Origin: a candidate division WOR-3 bacterium
Lineage (GTDB): Bacteria > Hydrothermota > Tepidihabitantia > SM23-42 > CAYGYG01
Assembly (NCBI GenBank): GCA_965648915.1
Contig: CBFGIV010000003.1
Coordinates: 39,323 to 103,322 of the forward strand
Direction: 5' to 3'
DNA length: 64,000 bases
Shown here one piece after another: positions 10,765-52,315 of this stretch (position 1 is the first letter of the stretch; each line of letters begins with the position of its first letter). Both the position numbers and the translations under genes were made by a program. The notes under the pieces were generated by a model, which was not told the DNA's origin, ran no database searches, and saw only the letters and a program-made list of their open reading frames with translations.

Positions 10765-11694
10765 ATGTTTCTTTCTGTATTATCAACAGTCATAATCTGG
10801 TTGATCGCCGATCCGATCAAACTTACCTATATAAACGAAGTCCGGGTTGCACCTGATTCGCTCGAAGGTATTGAGATTGCGGTCTATCCGGTGCGGAATA
10901 TTGTCGATGTCCGTGGCTGGCAGATAAGAACCCGGGCTGGCCTGGCGACAATCAGTTCGAGTGTCCTGCCCGATAGTTTTGTCCTTATTAACCGCACCAA
11001 TCTCATCGGACCATTCGGGCTGAATGATACTACCGATTCGATTACCCTTTATCAGAATAGCCTGATCAGAGATGGTCTGGGCTACCGTAATAGTCGGCCG
11101 AGTCCTTTCGCAACAGCGGCACGATTCAATCAAAGGTTTTTTTACCCCGAGACCCTTCAGGTAGTTAGAACCTATATTGACTTGACGCCAACTTTTGGGC
11201 AGGCAAACGATGATTACGGTTCAATAACCGGGATGGTTCGAGACCAGAACGGGACGCCGGTTGAAGGAGCAACAGTCGAGGCTCATGGGCCTTTGGATGA
11301 TGCCTATACCTATAGTCGCTATAACCCTTATGCGGGTCTCTATTACCTTCACGGACTATCAAAATGTAAATATCTGATGACCGCCTCTAAACCCGGTTAT
11401 ACATCCCACACCTATCCAGACTCAGTCACTATCGGTGCGCAGGTCAATTTTGTCCTCAGGGCAATAAAGGTTGAAGATCAAACAATCTATCCCAAGCCAT
11501 CGCTTCCCAGAGAAAAGTCAATCTTTTCTCCCAGGATTGGACCGATCAGCAAATCTGAGTTTCAACTCTATACCATTACTGGTCACAAAATTTCTCGATT
11601 GTCTGATCTGCGCTGTCTTGCGTCCGGTATCTATTTCGTCGTAACAACTGAGCAAGGGGTAGTAAAGAGTCACAAAGTAGTCCTTATCCGATGA
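10765..11694 (+). CDS. Secreted protein with a lamin-tail-like N-region, carboxypeptidase-regulatory-like domain and T9SS-type C-terminal domain
   Basis: GAGGAG SD before ATG 10765; INEV, TPTFGQAN and GSITGMVRDQNGTPVEGATV; C-terminal LASGIYFV...KVVLIR. Confidence 0.7.
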   Translation: MFLSVLSTVIIWLIADPIKLTYINEVRVAPDSLEGIEIAVYPVRNIVDVRGWQIRTRAGLATISSSVLPDSFVLINRTNLIGPFGLNDTTDSITLYQNSLIRDGLGYRNSRPSPFATAARFNQRFFYPETLQVVRTYIDLTPTFGQANDDYGSITGMVRDQNGTPVEGATVEAHGPLDDAYTYSRYNPYAGLYYLHGLSKCKYLMTASKPGYTSHTYPDSVTIGAQVNFVLRAIKVEDQTIYPKPSLPREKSIFSPRIGPISKSEFQLYTITGHKISRLSDLRCLASGIYFVVTTEQGVVKSHKVVLIR

Positions 11695-12230
11695 GGGTGA
11701 TTTTAGTTGGACTCACCCTTATCACCGGGCTTGGTGCGGATATAAAATTCTATAGAGAGCGGGTCGATATTATAATCGATAATGCCTCCGGGGTTGTTGA
11801 GGGGAATTTTTTCTTAACCAACACCAGCCCGGTCAGGCTTACACCCTTGATCTTCTTCCCCTTTCCAATCGACCAGGATCATCCTTATCCGGAGACGATT
11901 GCGGTCGAAGAATATAATTATCAGATCTGTGATTCGGGAATAGCAATCATAATCCCCTTTGAACCAAACGAGAAAAAAAGGTTGAAACTCCGTTATCGTC
12001 AGAAAATTTTCGATCAGGTTTTTACTTATATTGTCCGAACCATTCATGAATGGAAGCGACCTGTTGCCGAGGCCGAATTCGTTATCGTTCTGCCCGCTTC
12101 TTTTAAGAATCCCGAAATAAATTATAAAGTCAATCTGGTTAGAAAAGATAGCCTCAGGCTGATTTACAAAATTAAAAGAAAGAATTTTTATCCAAGGGAT
12201 GATTTGCAGATTAAATGGCAGGTTGAATGA
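11691..12230 (+). CDS. Exported hypothetical protein (DUF4424-like)
   Basis: ATGA overlap with the upstream gene, signal-like N-terminus, and YIVRT...W pattern. Confidence 0.6.
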   Translation: MRVILVGLTLITGLGADIKFYRERVDIIIDNASGVVEGNFFLTNTSPVRLTPLIFFPFPIDQDHPYPETIAVEEYNYQICDSGIAIIIPFEPNEKKRLKLRYRQKIFDQVFTYIVRTIHEWKRPVAEAEFVIVLPASFKNPEINYKVNLVRKDSLRLIYKIKRKNFYPRDDLQIKWQVE

Positions 12231-12255
12231 GATGGGCCGGTTCTTAGGTGTAGTA

Positions 12256-12283
12256 TTGACAATAAACGGCAGATGAGTAAAAT
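12256..12283 (+). promoter_or_regulatory. Promoter TTGACA-N16-TAAAAT, 5 nt before ATG 12289
   Basis: Read directly; no room for an SD. Confidence 0.7.
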
Positions 12284-12288
12284 AGGCC

Positions 12289-15735: not shown

Positions 15736-17838
15736 CTAAAAATTTGCTGAAATTCCGAGGAGGGGAATAAAAGGGAGTGAATAGTAGGTTTTAGTTCTAC
15801 CGGTAGTTGGATCAAACTCGTAATTTTCGATATTCTTCCTGTTCAACAGATTGATGGCTTCACCATAGAAGGTTATGATACCCAGTCTCTTTTCAAGCCG
15901 AAGGTCAAGTCGACTGTAGTATTCGGTGCGGGCACTATTTTTTTCTCCGTAGACGGGTAGGTAGCACTGTCTTAAGGAATCATAGAATGTCTGAACCAAC
16001 GGTGTATATGGTTTACCCGAGGCAAACCTTAAATTGGTCGATACGGTAAATCCTTTGATTTCGGGCAGGGCTAGGCTCAGATTTATCGTGTGGGGCTGTT
16101 CCCAGTCAGCACGGTAGAGTTTTCGATCAAAACCGGTTTTACGATAACTGGTAAGGAAAGAGTATGAGAACCACCCGGATAAATATCTCTTATCTTCGCG
16201 CTGAAGAAAGATCTCAATCCCCCGGGCATAGCCATAGCCATCATTGGCCGTATGCTGGAAGGTCGAATCCGATGTGATGAGCCGATCGTAGTCTTTATAA
16301 TATACTTCAATCTTAATCCGGTTATTGGCTAAAAAATTCCATTCGGTTCCGAGAATATAATGGGTTGCCTTCTGTGATCGGGGGAAATTTGTTGTATCAA
16401 GCAGTTGTTCAAGTCGTCGGGGGAACTGATAAAATATACCATAGGCGGCGAAGACCGTGAGATCGCGATCCGGCAAAAGGCTGAGCATAATGCGGGGTGA
16501 AGTGACATACTCCTGACATTTTTTAAAATAATCTCCCCGTATGCCGTAACGAATGTTTATCAGGTAGTTAGGACGCTGTTCGGCTTCAATAAATAATCCT
16601 GGCACCGTAGTAATAATGTTGCTCTTTAAGAAAAGGTCGGGTTCGAGCGTATCAGGGATACCGCGCATACCAAAACCCGGCATCTTACCCTTTAAATTAA
16701 AGAGAATCCGGCTGTAGGAATAGCCACATTTAAGAGTAAATGTGATAGATGGCTGATAGATGATATCCTGCCGATAGACATAAAGCTTCAAATCATTATC
16801 CGCATGCCAGCGTAATAGTCTTATTCGGGCAGGGAAATAGTCAAAGTAGATGAGCGAGCGGAGGAGAAGATTGGTTCGGGCATTAAAATCATAGGCAACC
16901 GATGCATGACTGACCGACTGCCACCAGGTAAGTGTAGCTCCCTCTTCGTCAAGGGTGACTTTTGAATTGTCCTCGCTCAATAAGAAGGTAGATGAGATTT
17001 TATGATTTTTGTTGATCGGCAATACAAAATTGCCGTTAAGGTCATAATAATTAGGCAGGATATAACTCTCGGTTGCTCCCGATTTTTCAAGTAAAATATC
17101 GAACCAGCTGCGCCGTAGACATAAGGCGATATTGGGTGCGGTTATAAAAAATTTCGCATTGGCGAGATCGAGGGCAATCTTTCCTCTCCATCTTTCACCC
17201 CGGATCAGACGGGTCGAGACAATCCCGGACATCGCCCAGTTGTATTCGGCTGAGAAACCGCCAGTAAAAATATCGACCTGATCTATCATATCCGCATCAA
17301 ACATTCCACCCAGACCAAAGAAATGGAAGGGGTTGAAGATGACACCCCGATCAAGGAGGTAGAGGACCTCATCGATATCACCACCCCTTATTACAAAAAT
17401 TCCTGAGAAGTCTGAGACCGGCGAAATACCCGGCAACTTCTGAATCGCCCGGAATAAATCACCGCCCCCACCAGCCGTTCTCTTTATTTCCGATCCAGAA
17501 ATGGTCTTTGAATCTTCGATCTTCTCTTTCTTTGCGGTTACTTCAGTGACGGTTAGTTCAATCGGCTCAGGGGCGAGTTCGAAATTTAAATAGATTGAGT
17601 CTTTAAGAACGATAATCTTGATCTGGGGCTGGTAACCGATAAGGCTAACTTTCAACTGATATCGGCCGGTCGGAAGATCCGGCATATAAAACAGCCCCTG
17701 CCGATCTGTTGATGTTCCTCTACCTGTGCCGGGGATTGTAATATTAACATTGGGTAAAGGTTGGTGTGTCTCGCTGTCGACAATGTGACCGCTAACAGTT
17801 GCAGCCAAGATAAAAAAGAATACCAACATAAAAAGCAC
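15736..17838 (-). CDS. TonB-dependent receptor with an N-terminal carboxypeptidase-D-regulatory-like domain
   Basis: VSGHIVDSET, LPGI...IRGG plug, GGFSAEY, GIE, NLLNR and a C-terminal Phe. Confidence 0.88.
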   Translation of the reverse strand: MLFMLVFFFILAATVSGHIVDSETHQPLPNVNITIPGTGRGTSTDRQGLFYMPDLPTGRYQLKVSLIGYQPQIKIIVLKDSIYLNFELAPEPIELTVTEVTAKKEKIEDSKTISGSEIKRTAGGGGDLFRAIQKLPGISPVSDFSGIFVIRGGDIDEVLYLLDRGVIFNPFHFFGLGGMFDADMIDQVDIFTGGFSAEYNWAMSGIVSTRLIRGERWRGKIALDLANAKFFITAPNIALCLRRSWFDILLEKSGATESYILPNYYDLNGNFVLPINKNHKISSTFLLSEDNSKVTLDEEGATLTWWQSVSHASVAYDFNARTNLLLRSLIYFDYFPARIRLLRWHADNDLKLYVYRQDIIYQPSITFTLKCGYSYSRILFNLKGKMPGFGMRGIPDTLEPDLFLKSNIITTVPGLFIEAEQRPNYLINIRYGIRGDYFKKCQEYVTSPRIMLSLLPDRDLTVFAAYGIFYQFPRRLEQLLDTTNFPRSQKATHYILGTEWNFLANNRIKIEVYYKDYDRLITSDSTFQHTANDGYGYARGIEIFLQREDKRYLSGWFSYSFLTSYRKTGFDRKLYRADWEQPHTINLSLALPEIKGFTVSTNLRFASGKPYTPLVQTFYDSLRQCYLPVYGEKNSARTEYYSRLDLRLEKRLGIITFYGEAINLLNRKNIENYEFDPTTGRTKTYYSLPFIPLLGISANF

Positions 17839-19130
17839 TAACCGAGAACAATTAATTTAAGGATATTTGTATATTTACAATTTTTAAAAATCAGGAAATA
17901 GGCACCGGGTGATAAGCTTGCTTTTACTAAATTTAGAGAATGCTCCCCTCTATTTCTCTTACCAGCAAATATTCTTTTTATCTTTTTACCCGTAAGGTCA
18001 TAGAGATCAATGATTATATAAGATTCTTCCTGGAGATAGAAATGGAGAGTGGTATTATTGTTAAAAGGGTTGGGCAGGGCCGAGAAGCCATTTTTTACTG
18101 GTGAGTTGACGGTTAAGAAATCGCTTATTCCGATAAGATTCACTCGTCCCCTTTCGATCGAATTTATCCCGGTTCCATTCCATCCACAGACGACATAAAG
18201 AGAACAGCCTTTTTGGGTACCCCCGTGGGAACGGCGTGCAGTTCTGATCGGCGTCTCATTTGACCAGTATGGGTAGCGGCAATCTTTTTTCTGAACCGCA
18301 TTCAGATAACTTGAACGATCCTGCCCGCCGATAATAAACATCATCAATCCGGTATCGGGTGTATTGATAATATGGCCCGACGCCCAGAAGGTGGGGAGAT
18401 TCATTGAGTCTGATTTTATTATCCAGGTATCACCAGGGCAGAAATAGGCATATACTGATCGGGTGCCGTTAGGATAATTGGTTGAACCACCACAGATAAA
18501 GATCGTATCCCCGATCGGTATAGCGCATACTGCCATCTTGGGTACCGGCATCGGTCTTTTGACTGACCAGGTGTTACTGATCGGGTCATAGCACCAGGTT
18601 TCGTCGGTAAAGAGGGTGTCATATTTTATACCCCCGAACATATAAATCTTACCATTCCAGGTGGCAAACTGATAATAATAATGGGGGACACCCTGATTGG
18701 GCATCTTGCCGATTATCGTCCAGGTATTACTGTTTAGATCGATTAAGGTCAGATCATCAGTAAAGTTTGATCCCTGACGTCCACCGCCAACATATATCTT
18801 TGAACCGAGGGCAACTGCTGAATGGTTATGGACACCACCTCCGCCCGGATAGGTCAAGCCTCTCTGCCAGGTATTGGTGAGGGGATCATAAACCTCGTCA
18901 AAAGGGTGTGAACCATGGGTTGGGCAGTTACCGCAGATCAAATGAATTTTATTATCCGACCCCAGAATCGCAACCGTCCTTGAGACGGCGCAGGTGGGAA
19001 TTGGGACCATATATTCCCAGGTAATGGAGAATGGTCCTGCAGGGGTTGATGCTTCGCAAATAATAGGCTTACTAAGAAAATCATCAGGGGGTGGTGCCAC
19101 TGTAAGGAGGAAAAATATTATAATCTTCAC
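17838..19130 (-). CDS. Kelch-repeat protein with T9SS-type C-terminal domain
   Basis: Repeated IYV/MFGG...YDP..NTW motifs; C-terminal PNPFN...LYDLTGK...GAYFL...KLIVLG. Confidence 0.85.
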   Translation of the reverse strand: MKIIIFFLLTVAPPPDDFLSKPIICEASTPAGPFSITWEYMVPIPTCAVSRTVAILGSDNKIHLICGNCPTHGSHPFDEVYDPLTNTWQRGLTYPGGGGVHNHSAVALGSKIYVGGGRQGSNFTDDLTLIDLNSNTWTIIGKMPNQGVPHYYYQFATWNGKIYMFGGIKYDTLFTDETWCYDPISNTWSVKRPMPVPKMAVCAIPIGDTIFICGGSTNYPNGTRSVYAYFCPGDTWIIKSDSMNLPTFWASGHIINTPDTGLMMFIIGGQDRSSYLNAVQKKDCRYPYWSNETPIRTARRSHGGTQKGCSLYVVCGWNGTGINSIERGRVNLIGISDFLTVNSPVKNGFSALPNPFNNNTTLHFYLQEESYIIIDLYDLTGKKIKRIFAGKRNRGEHSLNLVKASLSPGAYFLIFKNCKYTNILKLIVLG

Positions 19131-19898: not shown

Positions 19899-22010
19899 TT
19901 ATCTCACGACCACCAGTTTCTTAACCGTGCTTTCGTTCTCATGCGTGTAGTTGACAAAGTAAATACCTGAGGCAAGTTTCCGGGTATCAATATTGATGGA
20001 CTTAACTCCAGCCTTTTCATTGCCATCGACCAAGGTGTTAACCAGTGAACCAGTAGCATCATAGATTTTGAGTGTAACATTTGCCGGATGAGGCAGACCA
20101 TAAGTGATGCGGGCAAAATTACGGGCATGCGAGGCTACATCGAGGGTGAAGTTTGAAGGTACCACTGCAGGATCTTCTTCAGATATGCTGACCGGGCTAT
20201 AACCACGCCAGTGGGCATAGATATTGGTTACCCGATATGTTCCACCATTCGATCTCAGTTCGAGAACGAACGGGATGATCGACTCAGCCGCCGGGATTGT
20301 GGAGAGGACGCGGAACTGGAAGTAGTCGGTTCCATTATGACCCTTGCGGTTCGCACCACCAACGCTGTCGAGGTCGCCAAATGTTCCAAGTGAATCCTCG
20401 ATCACTGCATAGGTGAAGCCGGGGCGTAGACGGAGCACACCAGTAATCCCGGTTGCTCTGCGGCCACCCGCACTCCAGATCGTGTCAACCATCCGGACCC
20501 GCTCACCTGGATCAGCCCGACCATTGTTATTACCATTACCCCAGTTGTCAATGATGGCATGGCGGTAATAAGCCAGACTCGGACTTCGAGGCATTACCTG
20601 CAGGAGTCGAGCCATATCGATAATACCCCAGCCATAGGTACTATCTTCACCTGGTGTCCCTTTGTCTCGTGCAGTATACATCATCAGTTTCTTCAATGTA
20701 TCGGCACCGATATTGGTATTATACTGACGCATCAGTAAGAAAGCACCAGCCACATGGGGACCAGCCATTGAGGTTCCGGACATTGTTCCGTAGTTATTCG
20801 GTCCAGTCCTTAAACAGGATCGGACATTAACACCCGGTGCAACCACTTCGGGTTTGCATCTGGTAGCAGGATTGTACATTGTGCAGTCAGTTGGACCACG
20901 GCTCGACCAGCTTGCGATATTCTCAGCATTATCAACGGCACCAACTGCATAGTTCAGAGTGAAAGTTGAGCAGATATTGGCTGGACTGCGATGGGTCTGG
21001 CGGGCTGGACCTTCATTGCCGGCAGAGTACTCAACGATACAACCAGCTGCTTCAAGCCGGTAGATCTCAGCATTCCATCTTCGGTCGCAATCCTGATAAC
21101 CGGTAAACCGTGCATCAATACCCCAGGAGTTCTGGCAGGCATCGGGCATATCATAGACCGTCGCTGGATTGCCATCCGGGTCTGCAGCCCAGGTATAGGC
21201 TTCACGGACATCAGCATCAAAACCTGAGCCTACACCCTGATTTATTGCATTATCCGCAATCCACTGTCCACCAGGTGCCATACCGACGGTATCACCCGGA
21301 TAACCACCAACCATTGTCCCACAGCAGTGGGTACCATGGCCATAGGTATCCTGAGGATTGGGTTGGCTACCGAGCGCATCTTTCCAAGCCTGGGCTAATG
21401 TTGCACCATTACGACCACGCCAGCGTCCAACCAGACAGGTATGCTGGAGATAGACACCGGTATCGAGACAGAAGGTGAGCCTTCCCAGACCATCGATCCC
21501 TCTCCGCCAGCAGGAGTCAGCCCGGACCATTGCCAGACCCCACTCATAGGCAAAGGTCTGGTCCGGAGCAGGTCCAACACTCACCGGCTTGATTAACTCG
21601 ACCGGCAGGTCGCGGTAGATGATGTCGACATCGGGCCGGTTGACAACCTTCTCGAGAACCGACTTCTTGCACTCAAGGGCAATTGAGTTGGAAAGCCAGA
21701 AGGAACGGATGCGACGGATATTGCCGCTCGCCTTCTCCTTGTTGAGAAAGGCAAGGATATCTTTCTGACTCTCATTACACTTATTCATCAGGGCACTGCA
21801 GATGACATAGTGCCTCTCCTGGCGGTCGGCATTCCGGGCATTTAATTCGGCCTCGAGTGCGGGCACATCGACCTGGTCCGCCATAATCACGATTGCCCTG
21901 ACTTCAGCGTCATCGGGCAGGGTCTGGAGATACTCTTCAAACGGCGGCTCATAATAACCGGCCAGAACCAGACCAATCGCCATCATAACCAAAAACGACA
22001 CTCGCTTCAT
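19899..22010 (-). CDS. S8 subtilisin-like serine protease (bacillopeptidase F-like) with T9SS-type C-terminal domain
   Basis: Signal peptide and prodomain; LDTG, GHGTH, SAGNEG and SGTSMAGPH; C-terminal IYDATG...SGIYFV...KKLVVVR. Confidence 0.92.
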   Translation of the reverse strand: MKRVSFLVMMAIGLVLAGYYEPPFEEYLQTLPDDAEVRAIVIMADQVDVPALEAELNARNADRQERHYVICSALMNKCNESQKDILAFLNKEKASGNIRRIRSFWLSNSIALECKKSVLEKVVNRPDVDIIYRDLPVELIKPVSVGPAPDQTFAYEWGLAMVRADSCWRRGIDGLGRLTFCLDTGVYLQHTCLVGRWRGRNGATLAQAWKDALGSQPNPQDTYGHGTHCCGTMVGGYPGDTVGMAPGGQWIADNAINQGVGSGFDADVREAYTWAADPDGNPATVYDMPDACQNSWGIDARFTGYQDCDRRWNAEIYRLEAAGCIVEYSAGNEGPARQTHRSPANICSTFTLNYAVGAVDNAENIASWSSRGPTDCTMYNPATRCKPEVVAPGVNVRSCLRTGPNNYGTMSGTSMAGPHVAGAFLLMRQYNTNIGADTLKKLMMYTARDKGTPGEDSTYGWGIIDMARLLQVMPRSPSLAYYRHAIIDNWGNGNNNGRADPGERVRMVDTIWSAGGRRATGITGVLRLRPGFTYAVIEDSLGTFGDLDSVGGANRKGHNGTDYFQFRVLSTIPAAESIIPFVLELRSNGGTYRVTNIYAHWRGYSPVSISEEDPAVVPSNFTLDVASHARNFARITYGLPHPANVTLKIYDATGSLVNTLVDGNEKAGVKSINIDTRKLASGIYFVNYTHENESTVKKLVVVR

Positions 22011-28482: not shown

Positions 28483-28622
28483 CGTTTAATCTTGAAAACC
28501 GGCCTGGTTGAAAATCGAAAGTTTCAACCCTAGTGGAGATAAGAAAAGCGCATCGTTCAAGGGGCCGGTCAGAGATTATGCTCCGTGGAAACGGAGTGAT
28601 GAATAATGCTGTAGGAGGTTTT

Positions 28623-31046: not shown

Positions 31047-31063
31047 ACGGTAGAATGCATCTT

Positions 31064-31095
31064 GAAGGGCCGCCTCGGGCGGCCCTTCTTTTTTT
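31064..31095 (+). terminator. Intrinsic terminator
   Basis: GAAGGGCCGCC-TCG-GGCGGCCCTTC followed by T7. Confidence 0.88.
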
Positions 31096-31118
31096 CAAGT
31101 TAATACCGGGCATAATCC

Positions 31119-31146
31119 TTGACACTTACAAATCCCTGACTATAAT
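31119..31146 (+). promoter_or_regulatory. Promoter TTGACA-N16-TATAAT, 6 nt before ATG 31153
   Basis: Read directly. Confidence 0.75.
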
Positions 31147-31152
31147 CTTCTT

Positions 31153-31929: not shown

Positions 31930-32929
31930 AATTTTACTGAGTATCACCATATCTATCCTGATCTCTTCAGCCTGGCTTTACGAACCCGGGGCAACCGGTA
32001 TGACCTTCTTAAAACTGGGAATTGGAGCAAGACCAGTGGCAATGGGCAATGCCTTCAATGCGGTCAGCGATGATGGCAATGCCATCTTCTGGAATCCAGC
32101 CGGTTTTGGTATATCGCGCGACTTCCATCTCACGGGTATGGGTATGAATATGTTAGGATTTGTAAATTATTTTTCCCTCGGTAGTCTTATACCAGTGGGC
32201 AGATTCGGCGGCATCGGTGTTGGTGCCTCCTACCTCTTTGCTCAGGATACCCGCTACAGTGAAATGGGTGAGGAGTTAGGAAGTTTCACTAATTCTGACC
32301 TGTTGATCGGTCTTGGTTACGCATATCCTTTTATCTCATCGCTCTCTGGCGGTGCATCAATGAAATTCATTCGCAGCCAACTTGCTGAGTATTCTGCTTA
32401 TTCTTTTACAACCAATGTCGGTATCATCTTCAGTCCAATTAAATATATCTATCTCGGTTCAAGCATCCGCGATCTTGGCCCACCCCGAAGATTTATCAGT
32501 GAATGGGAATATCCACCAACCAATCTCAGAAATGGCATAGCATTGAAGATACCTATTGAGGAGAGCCAGATTACCATCTCCTCAGATCTTTCGGTCTATC
32601 CCGATGTCTCACCAACCTTTTCGGCCGGGGGTGAGTTAGCATTAAGACTCAGCCAGATGATGAAGAAGATTTCCGGGCAACCGCTTTCCGGAATATTTAT
32701 TCGTTGCGGTTATCAGTCTGGTTACCACCTTGGAAACTGGGGCGGACTCTCTTTCGGCCTGGGAATTGAATATCAGGTATATACCAATCTCTTTCTAATC
32801 CTTGATCTGGTCTATTTTTCATATGGTTACCTTGGCGAATCAGAACGGGTCTCGCTCTCTTTACGGTACGCGCCCAGCATAGCGCGTCGGTCGAAGAGCG
32901 GTAAGCGCCCCGGGCGTTCCAGACGATAA
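31919..32929 (+). CDS. PorV/PorQ-like (UPF0164 / FadL-fold) outer-membrane protein
   Basis: FLKLGIGARPVAMGNAF.AVSDD..AIFWNPAG signature and C-terminal beta strands. Confidence 0.82.
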   Translation: MGYKILLSITISILISSAWLYEPGATGMTFLKLGIGARPVAMGNAFNAVSDDGNAIFWNPAGFGISRDFHLTGMGMNMLGFVNYFSLGSLIPVGRFGGIGVGASYLFAQDTRYSEMGEELGSFTNSDLLIGLGYAYPFISSLSGGASMKFIRSQLAEYSAYSFTTNVGIIFSPIKYIYLGSSIRDLGPPRRFISEWEYPPTNLRNGIALKIPIEESQITISSDLSVYPDVSPTFSAGGELALRLSQMMKKISGQPLSGIFIRCGYQSGYHLGNWGGLSFGLGIEYQVYTNLFLILDLVYFSYGYLGESERVSLSLRYAPSIARRSKSGKRPGRSRR

Positions 32930-33872: not shown

Positions 33873-34488
33873 TTTTAAGACAGTAAGTCTTGCCCAGACG
33901 AACGATCAAGGCGTGGAATTCATTAAAGACCTTGACTTCCGATTTTAAACTTTTGATAAAAAAATCCTGAATCTCATCATAGCTTGCATCTTCTTTTATA
34001 ATATTATGGCGTAAAAGAAATCTCCTGGTATAGGCATCAACCACAAAGACCGGCCGATTCAGAGCGTACAATAGAATCGAATCAGCAGTCTCAGGTCCAA
34101 TGCCATTTATTGCCAGCAATTCCCGGCGCAATCTTCCGGTCGGCAATCTCTCCATCCTTTTGATTTCACCCTGATAATTTTCATCGAGATAACTCATACA
34201 ATTTAACAGACGCCGCGCCTTGACATTATAATAGCCTGCGGGTCTGATAAGCCGGGCAATCTCTTTCCGTTTTTTTAAAATCATTTTAACATCTAACAGC
34301 TTCGCCTTTTTTAAATTCTTAATCGCCTTTTCGACATTAGGCCAGGCGGTATTCTGGGTAAGAATAGCACCAATTATCACCTCTAAGGGGCTATCTCCCG
34401 GCCACCAGTGCTGGGGACCAAAATGTTTTAAGAGGGTTTGATAGATATCAGAGACCTTGATATTCCTGGAGTTTAAAAATCGAGTCAC
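33826..34488 (-). CDS. HhH-GPD / endonuclease III-related DNA glycosylase
   Basis: GPQHWWP, GAILTQNTAW.NVEKA, GIGPETADSILLYA and FVVDAYT. Start codon uncertain. Confidence 0.88.
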   Translation of the reverse strand: MTRFLNSRNIKVSDIYQTLLKHFGPQHWWPGDSPLEVIIGAILTQNTAWPNVEKAIKNLKKAKLLDVKMILKKRKEIARLIRPAGYYNVKARRLLNCMSYLDENYQGEIKRMERLPTGRLRRELLAINGIGPETADSILLYALNRPVFVVDAYTRRFLLRHNIIKEDASYDEIQDFFIKSLKSEVKVFNEFHALIVRLGKTYCLKNEPLCSDCPLNFLGR

Positions 34489-35143
34489 CCGTAGAATAGA
34501 AGGTAATCAGCCCGACATCGGGCGCATAGTATTCAAAATATCTGGTACTATCAAAATATGTATAGAAACTCGAATTTATCCGGCAAACATTCAAAACTTC
34601 GACCTTATAGACATCATCAAAAATACCGGCGGGCACTTCAATCCTTCCTGACCTTTTGTCGCCGTCCATCGGTTCGGCCAATCCGATCACCCTACCGTTG
34701 ATCCGGTGGTCAATCCTGACCTTAACCCCACCAATATCTATTGAGTCATAAAAGAGGTCCTCCCAGGTGTTACCCGTAATCAGCGGTAATTCAATCCATT
34801 TTCGATAACGGGCCTCGATCTCATATTCAAATCCTCCATAAGGCACTTTTATATCAAAAAAACGGTATATGCCTTCTGGTTGTTTAGATCGATATTCAGC
34901 TATGCCATTGATAACAAATACCACCGCATCATAATCAAACCAGGTCGTCTCCGCTTCAACCTGAATATATATATCCCGACTTTGAGATTTATAGAGCCAG
35001 CCCGCACCGACTTTAACTGGATAATAGTCTGCACCGGACCTGCAGATAATGTGGTCATCACAACAGAAGAAGAGTAAAAAGATCAAAGTCAGAAGAATCC
35101 GGTGTCTATTTTTTAAGAAATAAATACTACAGGACATAACCAA
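34448..35143 (-). CDS. Hypothetical lipoprotein
   Basis: LLFFCC lipobox-like sequence; YYP..VG..W.Y, VPAG.F and YAPDVG pattern. Start uncertain. Confidence 0.6.
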   Translation of the reverse strand: MVMSCSIYFLKNRHRILLTLIFLLFFCCDDHIICRSGADYYPVKVGAGWLYKSQSRDIYIQVEAETTWFDYDAVVFVINGIAEYRSKQPEGIYRFFDIKVPYGGFEYEIEARYRKWIELPLITGNTWEDLFYDSIDIGGVKVRIDHRINGRVIGLAEPMDGDKRSGRIEVPAGIFDDVYKVEVLNVCRINSSFYTYFDSTRYFEYYAPDVGLITFYSTGDSIFKLQEYQGL

Positions 35144-39951: not shown

Positions 39952-40674
39952 ATGTTTACTTTCTGTATCGCACTATCTCTCTTTATGAATTATATCAAGC
40001 TCCATGGTGATACGGTGATGTTTTATAACCATGACTCAACCCTGATTAAAAAGATTGTCTTAAAGTGTAGCCAGGAGAATAAGTTTGTAAACGGCAGATC
40101 GGTCTCGATCACCACGATTGAGAAGGCCTATCTTTCGGAAAACGGAAAATATCTTATCCTGTTTCATCTCAAGACCAACGATTCAGTAATTGAAAGCTGG
40201 GTAAGGTTTATTGACCATGAAGGAAAAATTATTATCCAGCGTTCAACATCGGGGAGATATCAGTATGATCCTTACACTTCCTTAGCTCATAATCTCGGTT
40301 TTGCCATCGTTGTTTTGACCGATTTTTATCGCCATAACCCGGTTCTTTTCCTTATAAATAATAAGGGGCAGATAAAAAAGCTATCCCGCTCAAAATGGCA
40401 TGGAATTGCCGGTGTCTCGGCATCAGATAATGGGAAATTTCTGGCATTCAATGTCCGTCGTAAAGAACGGAAATATGTCTGGGATTGTCTCCTATTTATC
40501 GATTTAGAAAAAAGTCAAGAATGGACCTACACCTTTTCCGATTGTCTCTCCTGTGGTCGATCCAGTGGATTAAAATTTAATCTGAATAACGAAGGGACAA
40601 CAAGCGTGGTATTTAAGAATGAAACCTATCTCTTCGCCCGGGATGGCCGAATTCTAAGGATCAATTCTTTATGA
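39952..40674 (+). CDS. Exported hypothetical protein (partial beta-propeller-like)
   Basis: 240-aa ORF with S.NGKY/F repeats and its own TTGACA promoter. Confidence 0.55.
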   Translation: MFTFCIALSLFMNYIKLHGDTVMFYNHDSTLIKKIVLKCSQENKFVNGRSVSITTIEKAYLSENGKYLILFHLKTNDSVIESWVRFIDHEGKIIIQRSTSGRYQYDPYTSLAHNLGFAIVVLTDFYRHNPVLFLINNKGQIKKLSRSKWHGIAGVSASDNGKFLAFNVRRKERKYVWDCLLFIDLEKSQEWTYTFSDCLSCGRSSGLKFNLNNEGTTSVVFKNETYLFARDGRILRINSL

Positions 40675-43975: not shown

Positions 43976-44099
43976 AAGTGATTATTATCTTAATTAAAAA
44001 AACACTAATGTCAAGAAATGATTGTGATAAAAATAGACCCCTGTGACCTATCCCTATCTCTTCCTTGACTTTTCAATTTATTTTGTTATTATAAAACTT

Positions 44100-45575
44100 A
44101 TGGCCGCTCTCTTCTCATTACTCATCTTCTTCAATATAAAGGTCTTTCATACTGACTCATCCCTCCTTTTTTTTAAGCCGGGACTTGATGAATATGAAGA
44201 AGCAGTATTCGGTGAGAAAATAACAGGACTTGCCCAGGGCAAGGATCTCTACCTCCTGACCGAGCATTACCTCTACAAGATCGATCCGGAAAAGAGATTG
44301 ATCAAACAGAAGAATTATCTACCATTTCGCTTAAACAGTATAACACTTCAGACTGACCGAAATGGAGATGATTCGCTCCTCATTATTCTTTCTATCGATG
44401 AGATAATTTTAATCGACCCCGTTTATCTCTCTTATGCAGGCGGTATCGGTATCCCCCCGGGTGATCGGGAGATAATATCGACTCTTATTCCGGGGTTGAT
44501 TTATCTAATTGTGAAAGGGCTAAAAAGTTCGCTGATTGAAATTTATGATTTAAAAAATGGCCAACGCCGGCAGGGGATAAGAGTCGATCTGATCCGACAA
44601 ACCCTCTTTAATCCTGCAACCGGACATCTCTACCTTTTTGCAATCAATGGTGACATAAGAAGATTAACACTTAATTTGAGAGATAACAAGAAACTGCTTA
44701 ACCTCCAGCCACCAATATTAAATGCTTTTATCCTCGATTCAGATCTGGTGGTTGTCACCACGGCCGGGATATATCTGATTGAAATAAAATCAGGACGGGT
44801 GCTTGATCATCGACCGATGAAAATCGATGGAGCAGAGTTGATCGACTCGGTCTATCTCCTGACTTATGCCCATAACCAAGATGGTAATCTCTCCTCTTCG
44901 CTATCGCTATTGAATCTTGTTACAATGACACCGATTAAATATATCTCATTAACTGAATCAATTGAAAAATCTCTTCCCCTCGATTCCAACACACTTCTCA
45001 TAAAGACAGCGGAAAGTTACTCCCTCATCAATCTTATTAATGGAGAAATACAAAAACTGAAATGTAATCCAATCATCTTGAGTCCTGGGTTTGAAACCAC
45101 CCGGATCGCCCAGGATTCCTGTTATTATATCCAGGTGGGGGCCTTCTCTCAAATCAGCAAAGCCCGGGCCGTTATTGAATCATTGCTTAAATACAGAATA
45201 CCGGCATTCTGTGATTCGAGTTCAAGATTCTTTCGCATTCGAGTTGGGGGATTTATCAACCGGGAAGAGGCCGAGCTATTTAACACCGTGTTCGGTGCCA
45301 AAAACTGGCTTGTCTTTACGGCAAAAGACCAATCCCGAGTTCTACCGGCCAGCAGTCTCTGTGCCTTTAATGGCCAAAATACCCTTTTCGTATTCAGGTA
45401 TGATTCAGGCACTTTAAGATTAATCCATAAAATTGAAAATTTCATAAAAGACTATCAAGGGAACCCGGTCATCAAAGATTCGACCATTGAGATCAGAAGG
45501 AATGATGGCCGGAAAAGTATCTTCTATTTCAAAACAGGAGGAATTTATGAAGAGATCAGAGATATTCAAGACTGA
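44100..45575 (+). CDS. Exported beta-propeller-like protein with SPOR domain
   Basis: YYIQVGAFS...A...L and FRIRVG.F..REEA; ATG 44100 lies 7 nt after TTGACT-N16-TATTAT. Confidence 0.75.
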
Positions 45576-47597: not shown

Positions 47598-48338
47598 ATG
47601 GTTAAAGGACTCGTAATCATCCCTACTTATAATGAAGCAGAAAATATCGCCACTGTTATCAAGTCGGTCCTTAAAATAATGAAAAATGTAGACATCCTGA
47701 TCATTGACGACAATTCTCAGGATGAGACCAGAAAGATTGTCAGGAATATCAGAAGGAGGGAAAAAAGGGTCACAATGATTGAACGGCAAAAAAAATTGGG
47801 ACTCGGTACTGCCTATGTTATGGGTTTTAAATATGCCCTGTCCCATAATTATGATTTCGTCTTCGAAATGGATGCTGACCTCTCCCACGATCCCAATGAC
47901 CTACCGCGCTTTGTCAAAGAGTTAAATTTTTACGACCTCATCATCGGTTCCCGGTATATTAAAGGTGTCAGTGTGGTCAACTGGCCGATGAAGAGACTCT
48001 TATTATCTTATTTTGCAAATCTTTATGCCCGAATTGTGACCGATGTTCCAATCAAAGACTTGACCAGCGGTTTTAAATGCTATTCAAGACGGGCTCTGGA
48101 AGCTGTCAACTGGGATGATGTTAAGACCAATGGATATGGCTTTCAGATCGAGGCTAATTTTAGAATTTATAAGGCTGGTTTCAAAATAAAGGAAATCCCG
48201 ATCATCTTTGTCGAACGCAGGGCAGGGGTATCGAAGATGTCAAAAGGGATAATCTGGCAGGCGTTCTGGCTTGTCTGGAAACTGAGATTGCTTGCTCTTT
48301 TCAAAAATGAATTTAGACATCATCATCGTCAATTATAA
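47598..48338 (+). CDS. Polyprenol monophosphomannose synthase (Ppm1/Dpm1-like GT2)
   Basis: IIPTYNE, DDNS, GLGTAY..GF, MDADLSHDP, GSRY, D.TSGFK and ERRAG.SKM. Confidence 0.88.
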   Translation: MVKGLVIIPTYNEAENIATVIKSVLKIMKNVDILIIDDNSQDETRKIVRNIRRREKRVTMIERQKKLGLGTAYVMGFKYALSHNYDFVFEMDADLSHDPNDLPRFVKELNFYDLIIGSRYIKGVSVVNWPMKRLLLSYFANLYARIVTDVPIKDLTSGFKCYSRRALEAVNWDDVKTNGYGFQIEANFRIYKAGFKIKEIPIIFVERRAGVSKMSKGIIWQAFWLVWKLRLLALFKNEFRHHHRQL

Positions 48339-49176
48339 TTCAGGCCCATACTTAAAAAAATGCCTCGACTCGATAAGCCCGGCCTTCAACGGCGATCTTG
48401 GGAGGGTACTTATCATTGATAATGCTTCTTCTGATGGGAGTATTATTAATCTCCAAAGTGTCTATCCTCATATCCAGATTATCCGGAACCAGCAAAATCT
48501 CGGTTTTGCCCGGGCGGTAAATCAGGGGATAAGAATCACCACTTCGCCTTATCTCCTCCTCATTAACCCGGATGCCGAATTACAATCAGCGAGTATTGAC
48601 AAAATGCTACAATTTATGGAGACGAAGCCCGATTGCGGTGTGCTTGGAGGCCTGGTTCTTTATCCAGACGGTCGACGCCAGGAGACCGTCCGTTCCTTCC
48701 CTACTTTCTGGACAGTTCTTTTAGGACGCAGATCTTCCCTAACTTATAAAATTTTCCCCCATAATCCATTTTCCAAGAGATATCTTCTCACGACCCATGA
48801 CTTCACAAAGACGCAGGAGGTCGACTTTGTTGCCGGGACATTTATGATGTTGAGAAGAAAAGCGCTTGAAGAGATCGGGCTTTTTGACGAAGACTATTTC
48901 TGCTATGTTGAGGATGTTGATATCTGCTGGCGGATGAAAGAAAAAAACTGGAAGGTCTATTTCTATCCTGAAGCAAGGTGCGTTCATCTTTACGGCGAAA
49001 ATATAAGGAAGGATAATATCCATCCCGAGATTTATCACGCCCGGGGAATGTATCATTTTTTCAATAAGTATTATCAACCCAATTTTTTATACAAGTCTTT
49101 TTTGACCACCTGCCTCTATTTAAAGATCTGCCAGATAATCGCCTGGGGATTTCTTAAATTGTCGTTTGCACGATGA
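48307..49176 (+). CDS. GT2 glycosyltransferase (rhamnosyltransferase-like)
   Basis: IIVNYN, DNASSDGS, NLGFA, INPD and FDEDYF.Y.EDVD. Confidence 0.88.
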   Translation: MNLDIIIVNYNSGPYLKKCLDSISPAFNGDLGRVLIIDNASSDGSIINLQSVYPHIQIIRNQQNLGFARAVNQGIRITTSPYLLLINPDAELQSASIDKMLQFMETKPDCGVLGGLVLYPDGRRQETVRSFPTFWTVLLGRRSSLTYKIFPHNPFSKRYLLTTHDFTKTQEVDFVAGTFMMLRRKALEEIGLFDEDYFCYVEDVDICWRMKEKNWKVYFYPEARCVHLYGENIRKDNIHPEIYHARGMYHFFNKYYQPNFLYKSFLTTCLYLKICQIIAWGFLKLSFAR

Positions 49177-50174
49177 TCTATCTCTTTACTGTAATCATAA
49201 CCCTTGTGCTTGCCTATCTTTTGACCTGGCTGATGATAAAAATCGCCCATCGCTTCAACCTCTACGACATTCCCTCGGAACGAAAGGTCCACTATGAAAA
49301 TGTCCCGATCCTGGGTGGCGTCGGGATTATCATCGCCTTTTTTATCGGTGAAGGCCTGGCCTTCAAAGTTTTTGGGGTAAACACAAACTTTCTCTTACTC
49401 ATCTTTTTATCTTATCTACCAATAATGGTAATCTCAATCTATGATGATTTGAAGGAGACCAGTGTCTACCTAAGGCTTTTGATTCAGATAATCAGTGTCA
49501 CAATTATCGTCGTCGCCGGGCCCAAAATCGAGTACTTACCTTTACCTGTGGGTAAATTATCATTGCGTTTCTTTTCCTATCCGATTACAATCTTCTGGTA
49601 TCTTTTATTGATCAATGGTTTTAATTTTATCGATGGGCTCGATGGCCTGGCTGCAGGCATTGCCTGCATTGGATCGATCGTCATCTTTATAACTAAATCT
49701 GTGGTTGGTGATCAGTATTCAGCGCTTTTCTGTCTGGGCCTTTTAGGTAGCAGTCTCGGTTTTTTAAGATTTAACTTCTTTCCAGCGAAAATCTTTATGG
49801 GTGATACAGGTGCGAATTTTCTCGGTTTTACCTTTGCCGCAATATCACTCTTAAGCCAGGGTAGAGCTGTGGTCTTAACATCACTCCTGATCCCGATTAC
49901 GGCATTGAGTCTTCCGATCGTCGATGTCTTACATCATATCGTTTATCGCGCCGGTGATCGGAAGGGGCTTTTTGTTTCGGACAAAGACCATATCCACCAC
50001 CGTTTTCTCCAAATGGGCTTTCATCACAAATGGGTGGTAATAGAATTTTATCTATTAACTGCCCTCCTCGGTGGAGTCGGACTCTTTCTTTTAACCAAGA
50101 GCCGTCTCTACATTTATACATTTACAATACTTTTTTTAATTTTCAGTGTAATATGGTTTAAACAGAAGAGGTAA
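49173..50174 (+). CDS. WecA/TagO-like undecaprenyl-phosphate GlcNAc-1-P transferase
   Basis: RKVH...P.LGG, YDD, NFIDGLDGLA, IFMGDTG and HIHHR. Confidence 0.9.
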   Translation: MIYLFTVIITLVLAYLLTWLMIKIAHRFNLYDIPSERKVHYENVPILGGVGIIIAFFIGEGLAFKVFGVNTNFLLLIFLSYLPIMVISIYDDLKETSVYLRLLIQIISVTIIVVAGPKIEYLPLPVGKLSLRFFSYPITIFWYLLLINGFNFIDGLDGLAAGIACIGSIVIFITKSVVGDQYSALFCLGLLGSSLGFLRFNFFPAKIFMGDTGANFLGFTFAAISLLSQGRAVVLTSLLIPITALSLPIVDVLHHIVYRAGDRKGLFVSDKDHIHHRFLQMGFHHKWVVIEFYLLTALLGGVGLFLLTKSRLYIYTFTILFLIFSVIWFKQKR

Positions 50175-50176
50175 AA

Positions 50177-52315
50177 ATGATTATCCTTTTCATCATAAGT
50201 CTTTACAATATGAAATTTTATACCAACACTAACTATATCTACAAGTTATGTAATGATGGTCAATACCTTTATTGTGCAACCAGCGGCGGCCTGAGTATAT
50301 TCTCAATAGATGACAGATCTTTTAAGGTCTATACAAATACTGATGGCCTGCCGTCAAACTGGTCAACCTGTCTTGCCATTGACCGGGATAAGAATATCTG
50401 GGTTGGAACTGACAACGGCATCGGTATCCTGAAGGCAGACCATTCATCCATCTTAAGACTATCACAAAAATTCTTCCCCTCCCCAAGGATCAATGCCATC
50501 CATATTAGAGAAGACACGGTCTATATCGGAACCGAAGGTGGTTTACTTTTTATCAATACAAGAAATACCTTGATCGATACGAGCGATGATGAGTATAAGA
50601 TCATCAGAACTGTTAATGGTTTAATCTCTGACACTGTCCTTTCCATTGTCGCCAATCGATATATCTGGGTGGGTACGATGAACGGGATAACCCGCTTCAG
50701 CAAAAACTTCGATTCGGTCACTTATTTCCTGGACAAACAGAAGATCAAAACAATGGTATCGAAAGATTCAGTAAATATCTATGTCGGAACCGATAATGCC
50801 CTTTATCTGTTTCGGGATGACACCTTCCGGATCCTGATGAGCGGTTGGGACATAAATGACCTCGCCCTGAAGAACGATTCTCTATTTATTGTCATTCCGA
50901 ATGCCTTCATAATCTATAAAGATTCATTTATGACCCGCAATACGGGCCTGCCCGCCGGTATCAGATTAAAATCGGTGGCCACTACTTCTGATGCCTGGGC
51001 CGTGGGGCTCGGTAATGAACATTCTACCTTTGATAACAAAGGCGAAGGCATTGGCCTCTGGGAAAATGGTCGATTCTCAACCTATAAGAGAGAATGTATC
51101 CCTTCAAACTGTATTGCCGATTTGACCGTTGCCAGTAATGGCCAACTATTCTTAGCCTTGGGCCCCCGCGGTGGTATCGGTGCGGTTCTGTCGGGCATCG
51201 CACTGCTCAAAGAAGATTCTTCGTGGTTGAATATTACCAAACCGACAATCCCGACCGATATGGTGCATCGCTGTGATGCCGATCCTGCCGGCCGGGTCTG
51301 GTTTATCGGTAACTGGGAAGGCGGTGCCTTCTTTTACGACACTAAAGGCGATTCCTGGGTATTCTTCAATTCAGGAAACTCACAGATTGGTAGTAATATC
51401 GGCTGGGATATAAAGGCTGATGTCCATAATAATATCTACTTCTCTTTAGCTGGACCAGCCGACCGGATAATGGTCCTGGACTCTTCTCTGACCGTCTGGA
51501 CCCAACTTAACCCCGGTGGGCTCGGACACGCCGCCGAATTGGAAGTTGCTGATCAGGGCAGAATCTATGTCACCTTTAAGACCGAAGGGACGCTCTTTAT
51601 TGACACCAAGAACACAATTGCCGATGTCAATGACGATACCTTCTGTTTCTATACTGAAGAAAATGGTCTACCTTCGATAAACTGCCAGTCCGTACGGGTC
51701 GATCCCAAAGGCCGGACCTTTATTGCAACCGAAGCGGGCGTCGCTTTATTCTATAAGGACTCAATCAAGACCTTTAGCACTAAAAATAGTGGTATGATTT
51801 ATGACGACTGCCTGGCCATGACTATTGATGGGCAGAAAAGGATCTGGATATTGACTTCTGCCGGCATTTCCATCTATAATCCCTATTTTAACACCTGGCA
51901 AAGAATCGGCTTCAGCGAAAACAACCTCACCGTAAAGTTTGCCCCGGAAAAACTGGATAACAAAGCCTTTTTATTTGACCCTTATCACAACTGTGTCTGG
52001 CTTGGTAGCCGCAGCGGACTGCTCCGGATTGACCTTACCGAACCCCGGGTTTCCGGTACCGACAGCGCCTTTGTTTACCCTAATCCCCTAACTCGAAATG
52101 ACCATGCTCTTGTCTTCAAGAAAATTCCTCCTGATGCAAAGATTTATATCTTTTCGATCGATGGCCGGTTGATAAAGAAATTAGAGGACTTCGACCCAAC
52201 TGTTAGCGGATATATCTGGTTTGATGCTGAAATAAACCTCACCAGCGGTCTCTATTTTGCTCTGATTAAGAGCCCTCAGGAAAAAAGGATTTTAAAATTT
52301 GCCGTGGTCAAATAG
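50177..52315 (+). CDS. PorZ-like beta-propeller protein with T9SS-type C-terminal domain
   Basis: Propeller repeats (GLPSN...IWVGT..G); C-terminal VYPNP...IYIFSIDGRL...SGLYF...KFAVVK. Confidence 0.78.
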   Translation: MIILFIISLYNMKFYTNTNYIYKLCNDGQYLYCATSGGLSIFSIDDRSFKVYTNTDGLPSNWSTCLAIDRDKNIWVGTDNGIGILKADHSSILRLSQKFFPSPRINAIHIREDTVYIGTEGGLLFINTRNTLIDTSDDEYKIIRTVNGLISDTVLSIVANRYIWVGTMNGITRFSKNFDSVTYFLDKQKIKTMVSKDSVNIYVGTDNALYLFRDDTFRILMSGWDINDLALKNDSLFIVIPNAFIIYKDSFMTRNTGLPAGIRLKSVATTSDAWAVGLGNEHSTFDNKGEGIGLWENGRFSTYKRECIPSNCIADLTVASNGQLFLALGPRGGIGAVLSGIALLKEDSSWLNITKPTIPTDMVHRCDADPAGRVWFIGNWEGGAFFYDTKGDSWVFFNSGNSQIGSNIGWDIKADVHNNIYFSLAGPADRIMVLDSSLTVWTQLNPGGLGHAAELEVADQGRIYVTFKTEGTLFIDTKNTIADVNDDTFCFYTEENGLPSINCQSVRVDPKGRTFIATEAGVALFYKDSIKTFSTKNSGMIYDDCLAMTIDGQKRIWILTSAGISIYNPYFNTWQRIGFSENNLTVKFAPEKLDNKAFLFDPYHNCVWLGSRSGLLRIDLTEPRVSGTDSAFVYPNPLTRNDHALVFKKIPPDAKIYIFSIDGRLIKKLEDFDPTVSGYIWFDAEINLTSGLYFALIKSPQEKRILKFAVVK

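Follow-up and report, generated by a model that had tools for sequence, protein, structure and literature searches.

Introduction

General O-glycosylation of non-cytoplasmic proteins at the sequence motif D-(S/T)-(A/I/L/V/M/T) is known from Bacteroidota such as Bacteroides fragilis, Tannerella forsythia, Porphyromonas gingivalis, as well as Flavobacterium johnsoniae. According to the text of a review, no other known O-glycosylation follows a specific sequence motif, most Bacteroidota families show an enrichment of the motif when species-wide composition is taken as the expectation, and three components of the system, namely its transferase, core flippase, and ligase, are undiscovered (PMC12871550). 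Sites can be dense on proteins exported through type IX secretion systems (T9SS): in T. forsythia, 19 sites have been described in TfsB, 11 in TfsA, and 90 more in 16 cargo proteins (Veith et al., PMC8729774). Here, we investigate the occurrence of this sequon in a 64,000-nucleotide stretch of DNA (GenBank assembly GCA_965648915.1, contig CBFGIV010000003.1, positions 39,323 to 103,322; hereafter the window, to whose own numbering plain coordinates refer) from a candidate division WOR-3 bacterium, and in the genome around it. A preliminary description of the window had noted, from hand counts of D followed by S or T (D[ST]), that its exported proteins are rich in such dipeptides, and had proposed dense O-glycosylation under selection in this lineage. 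We found an excess that is specific to the three-residue motif, to exported proteins, and to the WOR-3 lineage, and we propose that this bacterium and most of its phylum probably run a general protein O-glycosylation that reads the Bacteroidota-type sequon.

Results

The sequon is enriched in exported proteins

The hand counts of D[ST] proved exact for all five exported proteins to which they had been applied (16 in the PorZ-like protein, 10 each in the C25 peptidase and the S8 subtilase, nine in the SPOR-domain protein, and five in the CarboxypepD_reg-domain protein), and they also held for the cytoplasmic proteins GlnA (2804-4144), RuvB (8375-9451), and SucC (60612-61745), which contain none, and Buk (46418-47491), which contains one; the GyrB fragment, for which three had been counted, contains five. 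The identities given to the named proteins were borne out by Pfam and NCBIfam. When counting the full sequon, D-[ST]-[AILVMT], against an expectation from within-protein shuffles, we found 43 sequons in the 21 exported proteins of the window, compared to a shuffle mean of 16.7 (standard deviation 3.9) and with none of 1000 shuffles reaching 43. The window's 22 cytoplasmic proteins contain 18 sequons compared to 14.4 expected, a number that was reached in 195 of 1000 shuffles.

The genome around the window comprises 2.45 Mb in 80 contigs, on which a self-trained hexamer model called 2056 genes. We sorted their products into proteins with a T9SS C-terminal sorting domain (CTD), recognized by our own iterated profile (n = 187), further proteins with a signal-peptide-like N-terminus according to simple rules (n = 511), membrane proteins (n = 320), cytoplasmic proteins without a hydrophobic segment (n = 913), and ambiguous proteins (n = 125). 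The CTD class contains 960 sequons compared to 340.2 expected (observed/expected ratio (O/E) 2.82, z = 33) and the signal-peptide class 729 compared to 355.1 (O/E 2.05, z = 21), followed by the membrane class with 267 compared to 215.6 (O/E 1.24, z = 3.7) and the cytoplasmic class with 555 compared to 542.8 (O/E 1.02, z = 0.6). The excess foreseen in the preliminary description thus stays in the exported classes of the whole proteome when composition is corrected for. One protein that our rules called cytoplasmic (G000:C13:26770-29209) contains 25 sequons compared to 3.2 expected, and is very likely an exported protein of which the signal peptide or the start codon was missed.

The excess resides in the three-residue motif, because D[ST] shows no excess in any class when a different residue follows (0.99 in CTD, 0.76 in signal-peptide, 0.63 in membrane, and 0.74 in cytoplasmic proteins). 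Control motifs were likewise flat, with the reversed motif at 1.04-1.22, E[ST]h at 0.86-1.05, N[ST]h at 0.70-0.97, and D[AG]h without enrichment, and the N-glycosylation sequon was not enriched either (0.93 in CTD, 1.06 in signal-peptide, and 0.85 in cytoplasmic proteins). Measured against an expectation that preserves dipeptides, the triplet still exceeds its expectation 1.70-fold in CTD and 1.57-fold in signal-peptide proteins.

We then varied a single position at a time in the CTD class. At position -1, D alone is raised (3.10), with the other 19 residues at 0.69-1.17 (E 0.92, N 0.69), and position 0 is enriched for S (3.24) and T (2.96) alone. At position +1, the order is L (4.58), I (3.66), M (2.99), C (2.95), V (2.66), F (2.43), T (2.37), A (2.20), S (1.62), and G (1.15), and charged residues, polar residues, and Pro fall to 0.4-0.6. 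The same profile in cytoplasmic proteins is flat. Ranked by raw counts, the +1 residues run L>I>V>T>A>S, an order identical to that of the measured Bacteroidota glycosites, and at position 0 Ser is more common than Thr, in line with the slight preference for Ser that those glycosites also show (PMC12871550). The additional +1 residues F, C, S, and G are part of the extended motif that was applied to P. gingivalis (PMC8729774).

The excess is broad, and the sorting domain is spared

Of the CTD proteins analyzed here (n = 182), 87% lie above their own expectation and 71% contain at least double of it, and only 5% contain no sequon, compared to 27% by chance. To account for relatedness, the exported proteins were grouped into 409 clusters; when one random representative was taken from each, the O/E was 2.31 (range 2.17-2.49 over 200 draws), and for the 350 exported proteins that are singletons it was 2.17. 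The residues flanking the sequon show a weak bias (at most 2.4-fold) with a mild turn-then-strand pattern: P, G, and N are overrepresented at -2, as are aromatic and beta-branched residues on the downstream side.

The sorting domain, which all cargo has in common, is poor in sequons. The 187 sorting domains together contain two sequons compared to 27.2 expected (Poisson p = 6e-10), despite the presence of 36 D[ST] within them, so that the T9SS secretion signal seems to be kept clear of putative glycosylation sites. Examples of such sequon-poor sorting domains in the window are found at 11400-11694 and at the C-terminal end of the 19899-22010 product.

The genome encodes a T9SS, with at least 150 matches above cut-off to the TIGR04183 sorting domain, the translocon protein SprA (392.6 bits, cut-off 200), the sortase PorU (466 bits, cut-off 420) on contig C2 (G000:C2:97604-100747), and a PorV/PorQ-family gene in the window. 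Cargo makes up about 9% of the called genes (187 out of 2056), which is very high for a 2.45-Mb genome, and relatives of the same order have 34-244 sorting-domain candidates on a first pass.

Orthologues preserve the motif as a class

To see whether sites persist between species, we compared this genome to 200 kb of a genome from the same family (G006), which yielded 44 exported ortholog pairs with a mean identity of 62.5%. The sequon was retained as a motif at 68 out of 85 sites, compared to 144 out of 268 sites for six control motifs (Fisher's exact test, p = 1.3e-5), and in cytoplasmic proteins it was retained at 19 out of 39 sites (0.49, compared to 0.80 in exported proteins). The share of strictly identical tripeptides at sequon sites was not above that of the controls (0.48), which means that the extra retention stems from swaps within the motif; indeed, 27 of the 44 changed tripeptides were still sequons. 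A more distant genome of the same order (G011; 22 pairs, 42.6% identity) gave retention at 16 out of 37 sites compared to 27 out of 138 control sites (p = 0.005), with one control motif, D[AG]h, being retained at 10 out of 23 sites. This retention of the motif as a class across orthologues points to selection.

The enrichment is a property of the WOR-3 phylum

The organism belongs to WOR-3, outside the Bacteroidota, in a GTDB phylum of 272 species genomes and 110 genera. Its GyrB is at most 64% identical to those of named phyla, except for one 74% match on a contig labeled 'Candidatus Omnitrophota', and in a GyrB tree it groups with this contig and with a 'Candidatus Stahlbacteria' genome (Shimodaira-Hasegawa approximate likelihood-ratio (SH-aLRT) support of 98 and 94). 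The GyrB DNA of the Stahlbacteria genome matches a contig of G279, a genome of the same phylum, at 100% identity. We assign the phylum to WOR-3 because it comprises only 272 species genomes and contains the Stahlbacteria genome; Stahlbacteria is a proposed name for WOR-3 (PMC12542636). We rejected an affiliation with the Omnitrophota from GyrB alone, as the remainder of the Omnitrophota-labeled genome (G001) contains no T9SS sorting domains and no match to PF11028, a glycosyltransferase family discussed below. The labeled contig (JAMWDE010000050.1) is 6.5 kb long and its GyrB is as close to that of the window as are those of WOR-3 relatives from the same order; it is probably mis-binned within a 1.1-Mb genome that otherwise lacks sorting domains and PF11028.

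We compared ten other WOR-3 genomes and nine genomes from outside the phylum in one pipeline. The signal-peptide class reached an O/E of at least 1.8 in nine of the ten WOR-3 genomes, across a G+C content of 30-56%. These include G006 (2.12), G011 (2.39), a genome from the genus of the Stahlbacteria genome (G278, 2.32), and members of families f10 (1.83), f14 (2.88), f15 (1.97), f25 (2.19), f31 (2.66), and f4 (4.05, from only 31 kb and with the cytoplasmic class at 1.92). In the CTD proteins alone, the O/E is about 3.0 in the closest relatives, with 84 sequons compared to 28.1 in G011 and 54 compared to 17.8 in G006.

Outside WOR-3, none of the nine genomes was enriched in this class (O/E 0.56-1.45). 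For the Bacteroidota, the values were 0.74 in Chryseobacterium, 1.12 in a Cyclobacteriaceae genome, and 0.59, 1.09, 0.58, and 1.45 in four others (pooled 99 compared to 99.7 expected), and for other phyla 0.92 in Leptospira, 0.97 in Longimicrobiales, and 0.56 in Eisenbacteria (45 kb of one genome). The T9SS cargo of Chryseobacterium soldanellicola (G003:C9:1-400000) is in fact depleted, with 12 sequons compared to 29.8 expected in 15 proteins (O/E 0.40). Within a single family, the S8 subtilases, 21 close full-length homologues of the 19899..22010 product have an O/E of 2.9-3.4, and 99 distant homologues, some of them named Zixibacteria, Gemmatimonadota, or WOR-1, give a pooled value of 1.05, with a subgroup of 56 short proteins at 1.63. 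The preliminary description had considered that homologues from non-glycosylating phyla might be equally enriched; judging from the distant S8 homologues and the outside genomes, this is not so. Since the six Bacteroidota are not enriched by the same measure, we conclude that the enrichment is a special property of the WOR-3 phylum and no general mark of the sequon system. The preliminary description had connected this lineage to the Bacteroidota sequon. The residues of the motif do match that sequon; the organism belongs to WOR-3 and not to the Bacteroidota, where the sequon is known.

Candidate glycosylation genes

We searched the genome for genes that could carry out such a modification. 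A wzx gene and three GT4 glycosyltransferase genes are present on contig C15. For the oligosaccharyltransferase STT3, the best match in the genome reached 19 bits, under the cut-off of 24.5. The single Wzy_C gene (817 amino acids, G000:C15:10628-13082, minus strand) lies in a cluster of Wzz, Wzx, GT4, and export genes typical of polysaccharide synthesis. This O-antigen ligase-type gene is a fusion, of which the N-terminal 350 residues match separate genes of 353-475 amino acids in other WOR-3 and in Eisenbacteria. We rejected it as a transferase common to both phyla, given that it has no match in six Bacteroidota and that only its N-terminal part is found, in three of five WOR-3 genomes. The GT-C glycosyltransferases of the PMT_2 family, of which the genome has 10 genes, a very high number for 2.45 Mb, are also unlikely to be the common transferase, as the family has no match in Bacteroides thetaiotaomicron.

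A profile search identified three GT-C genes of the TMEM260-like family PF11028 (contig C48, L221:3855-6554, plus strand; L222:1361-3250, minus strand; L223:474-2207, minus strand), with scores of 121.6, 121.8, and 98.1 bits (cut-off 24.2) and TPR in two of them. The longest protein (899 amino acids, contig C48) has a GT-C domain followed by C-terminal TPR repeats, and aligns with a Bacteroidota protein over about 660 residues (E = 2e-63). The Asp of its W-D-C-G-E motif aligns with the catalytic D52 of human TMEM260 (9rql_A), of which the D52A mutant is inactive (bioRxiv 10.64898/2026.09.21.753134). Among 14 reference genomes, we found PF11028 in B. thetaiotaomicron only. It is present in all of 121 evenly drawn Bacteroidota genomes, mostly as a single long copy of about 880-1300 amino acids, and in 262 out of 272 WOR-3 genomes (178 out of 181 high-quality ones). 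It also occurs in 81 out of 81 Gemmatimonadota (80 out of 80 without the unpublished genome G533), in 29 out of 81 Spirochaetota, and in one genome each of Eisenbacteria, Krumholzibacteriia, and Chlorobiaceae (one each tested), whereas a search of the Leptospira and Bacillus genomes gave no match.

Human TMEM260 is a protein O-mannosyltransferase that recognizes a sequence motif beside the acceptor Thr/Ser (PMC10214176; bioRxiv 10.64898/2026.09.21.753134), and mannose is the common reducing-end hexose of Bacteroidota glycans (PMC12871550). Because of these two features, together with the distribution across Bacteroidota and WOR-3, the alignment over about 660 residues, and the conserved Asp, we tentatively put forward the 899-residue protein as a candidate. 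It is conceivable, although we hold it to be rather unlikely, that this TMEM260-like enzyme reads the sequon and is the missing initiating transferase of the Bacteroidota system, that it adds the reducing-end mannose to D-S/T-hydrophobic sites from a polyprenyl-phosphate donor, and that the glycosylation system is an ancient trait of the Fibrobacterota-Chlorobiota-Bacteroidota group rather than an innovation of the Bacteroidota. Speaking against this role, PF11028 is also found in Spirochaetota, Gemmatimonadota, and Eisenbacteria, the latter two without sequon enrichment; moreover, the accepted model is a transfer of the core glycan en bloc, and nothing ties the enzyme to the sequon. The human protein (PDB 9rql) shares the GT-C domain, the aligned catalytic Asp, and the TPR with the 899-residue protein, a putative O-mannosyltransferase, and it differs in its sequon, P-x6-P-x3-P-x2-G-G-x3-T in IPT domains, which is unrelated to D-S/T-hydrophobic. 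In a literature search, we found no paper joining TMEM260 with the Bacteroidota and no bacterial member with an assayed function.

Sequon-bearing proteins and glycan genes of the window

The sequon-bearing proteins of the window cover a range of families. Those with a T9SS sorting domain are a PorZ-like beta-propeller (50177..52315, plus strand; seven sequons compared to 2.93 expected), a C25 peptidase with a propeptide (28533..31046, plus strand; seven compared to 2.02; PF01364, PF08126, and PF13860), an S8 subtilase (19899..22010, minus strand; six compared to 1.78), a Kelch beta-propeller (17838..19130, minus strand; three compared to 0.98), and the CarboxypepD_reg-domain protein (10729..11694, plus strand; four compared to 0.88), which the preliminary description had called the 10765 protein; no other protein of the window adds to these five sorting domains. 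The PorZ-like protein has Reg_prop repeats and scores 26.3 bits with TIGR04183 and 75.7 bits with the PorZ model NF052228, below the cut-off of 260. Sequons are also found in an outer membrane protein resembling TonB-dependent receptors (CarbopepD_reg_2 and Plug; 15736..17838, minus strand; five compared to 1.91), in two small exported proteins, one of no known family (34448..35143, minus strand; three compared to 0.48) and one at 39952..40674 (plus strand; three compared to 0.55), and in the SPOR-domain envelope protein (44043..45575, plus strand), in which nine D[ST] amount to just three full sequons compared to 1.54 expected.

The C25 peptidase scores only 44 bits with the model of the PorU sortase, and is for that reason taken as a PorU paralogue. 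Its gene is adjoined by that of a PorV/PorQ-family outer membrane protein (31919..32929, plus strand; NF033709, 129.1 bits, cut-off 90), an arrangement of a sorting-domain C25 peptidase and a PorV/PorQ-family gene (28533-32929) that is reminiscent of the porU-porV gene pairing. Given that the true PorU lies elsewhere (on contig C2, as above), the two genes appear to form a diverged sortase-like pair, the second in this genome.

The PorZ-like gene is immediately preceded by a trio of plus-strand glycan-synthesis genes (47598..50174), assigned with Pfam and NCBIfam, the latter below equivalog cut-offs: a GT2 similar to polyprenyl-phosphate sugar synthases (47598-48338), another GT2 (48292-49176), and a WecA/MraY-type polyprenyl-phosphate sugar-1-phosphate transferase (49173-50174). 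A GT-C membrane glycosyltransferase of the PMT_2 family, one of the 10 in the genome, faces them from the minus strand (52319..53683), convergent with the PorZ-like gene. By analogy to the anionic lipopolysaccharide (A-LPS) of P. gingivalis, the region 47598-53683 may be a unit for the synthesis and delivery of a glycolipid that anchors T9SS cargo, and would then stand outside O-glycosylation.

Discussion

A probable O-glycosylation system in WOR-3

Overall, our findings support the earlier suggestion of dense O-glycosylation under selection, through the composition-corrected excess, the position-by-position match to the sequon, and the retention of sites between orthologues. From these sequence patterns, we infer that the motif is glycosylated, that this takes place in the periplasm, and that its benefit is a glycan coat. 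Proteins would be exported by Sec and then glycosylated in the periplasm at D-S/T-hydrophobic sites, and with the modification occurring after export, only extracytoplasmic proteins would feel selection on the motif. Selection would favor many sites per protein, most strongly in the T9SS cargo that resides on or outside the cell. The cargo would be passed to the T9SS via its unglycosylated sorting domain, from which sites would be purged since the secretion machinery must recognize it. A possible benefit would be a glycan shield against the many peptidases that the cell secretes, or a surface layer as in T. forsythia.

Several observations weigh against this interpretation. It is important to point out that its support comes from sequence statistics. 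Our gene and signal-peptide calls follow crude, home-made rules that assigned a signal peptide to 143 of the 187 CTD proteins, although such rules mix the classes and would dilute the contrast between compartments rather than create it. Cytoplasmic proteins show a small excess of the triplet over the dipeptide-preserving expectation (1.20), and in WOR-3 family f28 the signal-peptide class is at 1.14, with its two CTD proteins at 3.61. The metG gene (C1:23743-25717) is not accompanied by a Bacteroides-type locus of wzx and glycosyltransferases; its neighbors are TatD, an RsmA-type methyltransferase, and DUF362. The sequon-reading enzyme is described in the text of the review as undiscovered even in the Bacteroidota (PMC12871550). 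Finally, the six Bacteroidota genomes that served as a positive control were not enriched (0.58-1.45, from samples of 100-400 kb each), and a recount with the species-wide expectation of the review gave 0.64-1.45, still near 1.0. These values do not fit well with the enrichment stated there (PMC12871550), though the samples are small and our predictor is crude. That Bacteroidota glycosylate their proteins and yet show no enrichment indicates that enrichment and glycosylation are not tightly coupled.

Alternatively, the motif might be read by some other extracytoplasmic system, such as a different Ser/Thr modification, a chaperone or sorting element, or a block to the cell's own secreted peptidases, with the identity to the Bacteroidota sequon being a coincidence or an older shared recognition. 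The statistics would allow this, as they reveal selection on a tripeptide and not what is attached to it, and so would the metG region and the known glycosylators that lack enrichment. What makes it improbable in our view is that the three positions, the rank order at +1, and the acceptance of F, C, S, and G all agree with glycosites measured in a related phylum, that a similar motif signal is described for the Fibrobacterota, another relative (PMC12871550), and that our literature search found no other system that reads D-S/T-hydrophobic.

The excess could also be a by-product of structure, if beta-rich exported proteins favor Asp-Ser/Thr in turns, with a hydrophobic residue of a strand coming next; the mild turn-then-strand pattern of the flanks and the small cytoplasmic excess over the dipeptide expectation are in line with this idea. 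Exported proteins of Leptospira, Longimicrobiales, Eisenbacteria, and the six Bacteroidota should then be enriched as well, but they are not, and neither are the distant S8 homologues; the Chryseobacterium cargo, which has similar domain types, is depleted, and neither E nor N can take the place of D, all of which renders a structural origin very improbable. Even less can be said for an expansion of paralogues, or of a repeated domain that bears the tripeptide, across the roughly 190 related cargo proteins. It is true that one single-linkage cluster holds 175 of the 680 exported proteins and that a few giants are rich in sites (57 in one of them), but the excess persists in cluster representatives and in singletons, 87% of the CTD proteins lie above expectation, and the CTD, as the only domain common to all cargo, is depleted in sequons. 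We give this explanation almost no credence.

If our interpretation is true, the origin of the sequon system is pushed back beyond the Bacteroidota. The genomes of WOR-3 are small (0.6-4.7 Mb) and thus suited to a comparative search for the missing enzymes, from which one candidate family has already emerged. Our interpretation further predicts that WOR-3 cells, the biology of which is almost unknown, wear a dense glycoprotein coat of T9SS cargo. Motif density may be read more generally as a selectable trait, being enriched in WOR-3 and avoided in the cargo of Chryseobacterium. Since a WOR-3 strain, sy37, exists in pure culture (PMC12542636), the predicted glycosylation can be tested directly. 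Our full-text literature search found no paper that combines WOR-3 or Stahlbacteria with O-glycosylation; WOR-3 is not named in the running text of the review (PMC12871550), and the terms 'glycosyl' and 'secretion system' do not occur in a WOR-3 genomics paper (PMC12542636).

Comparison to known glycosylation systems

Among systems outside the Bacteroidota, the proposed WOR-3 glycosylation would resemble PglL/PilO of Neisseria and Burkholderia and PglB of Campylobacter in being a periplasmic modification of many exported proteins from a lipid-linked donor. PglB requires an acidic residue upstream of its acceptor (PMC12871550). The WOR-3 genome differs from PglB-type N-glycosylation in that the N-sequon lies at 0.93-1.06 in exported proteins and STT3 stays under its cut-off. 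As to the PglL/PilO type, the one Wzy_C gene, a putative O-antigen ligase-type gene, is located within a Wzx/Wzz polysaccharide cluster and, when used as a query, found no counterpart among the six Bacteroidota.

The closest likeness is to the O-glycosylation of the Bacteroidota, with which WOR-3 shares the motif D-(S/T)-(A/I/L/V/M/T), the order at +1, the confinement to non-cytoplasmic proteins, and the acceptance of F, C, S, and G. It differs in lacking the metG-wzx-glycosyltransferase locus at metG and in its two- to threefold enrichment, compared to about 1.0 in the Bacteroidota, with the WOR-3 side being known from counts of motifs. The density of sequons in T9SS cargo appears to be under lineage-specific selection within the Bacteroidota, with T. 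forsythia bearing many sites and the gingipains of P. gingivalis none (PMC8729774). For the difference between these two species, Veith et al. proposed a link of sequon density to the absence of O-antigen. WOR-3 is similar to T. forsythia, with its S-layer proteins TfsA and TfsB, in that T9SS cargo is the class most laden with sequons, although in T. forsythia this is a measured glycoproteome and in WOR-3 a statistical trait of the phylum. The low sequon content of the gingipains and of the Chryseobacterium cargo represents the opposite. In the Fibrobacterota, a relative of the Bacteroidota, a sequon signal has likewise been described and taken as a hint of a pre-Bacteroidota origin, from a species-wide composition expectation (PMC12871550) and not from the per-protein expectation that we used for WOR-3. 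Together, the sequon and its non-cytoplasmic restriction are known from the Bacteroidota, and what our findings add suggests that the same sequon code is under stronger selection in a separate phylum.

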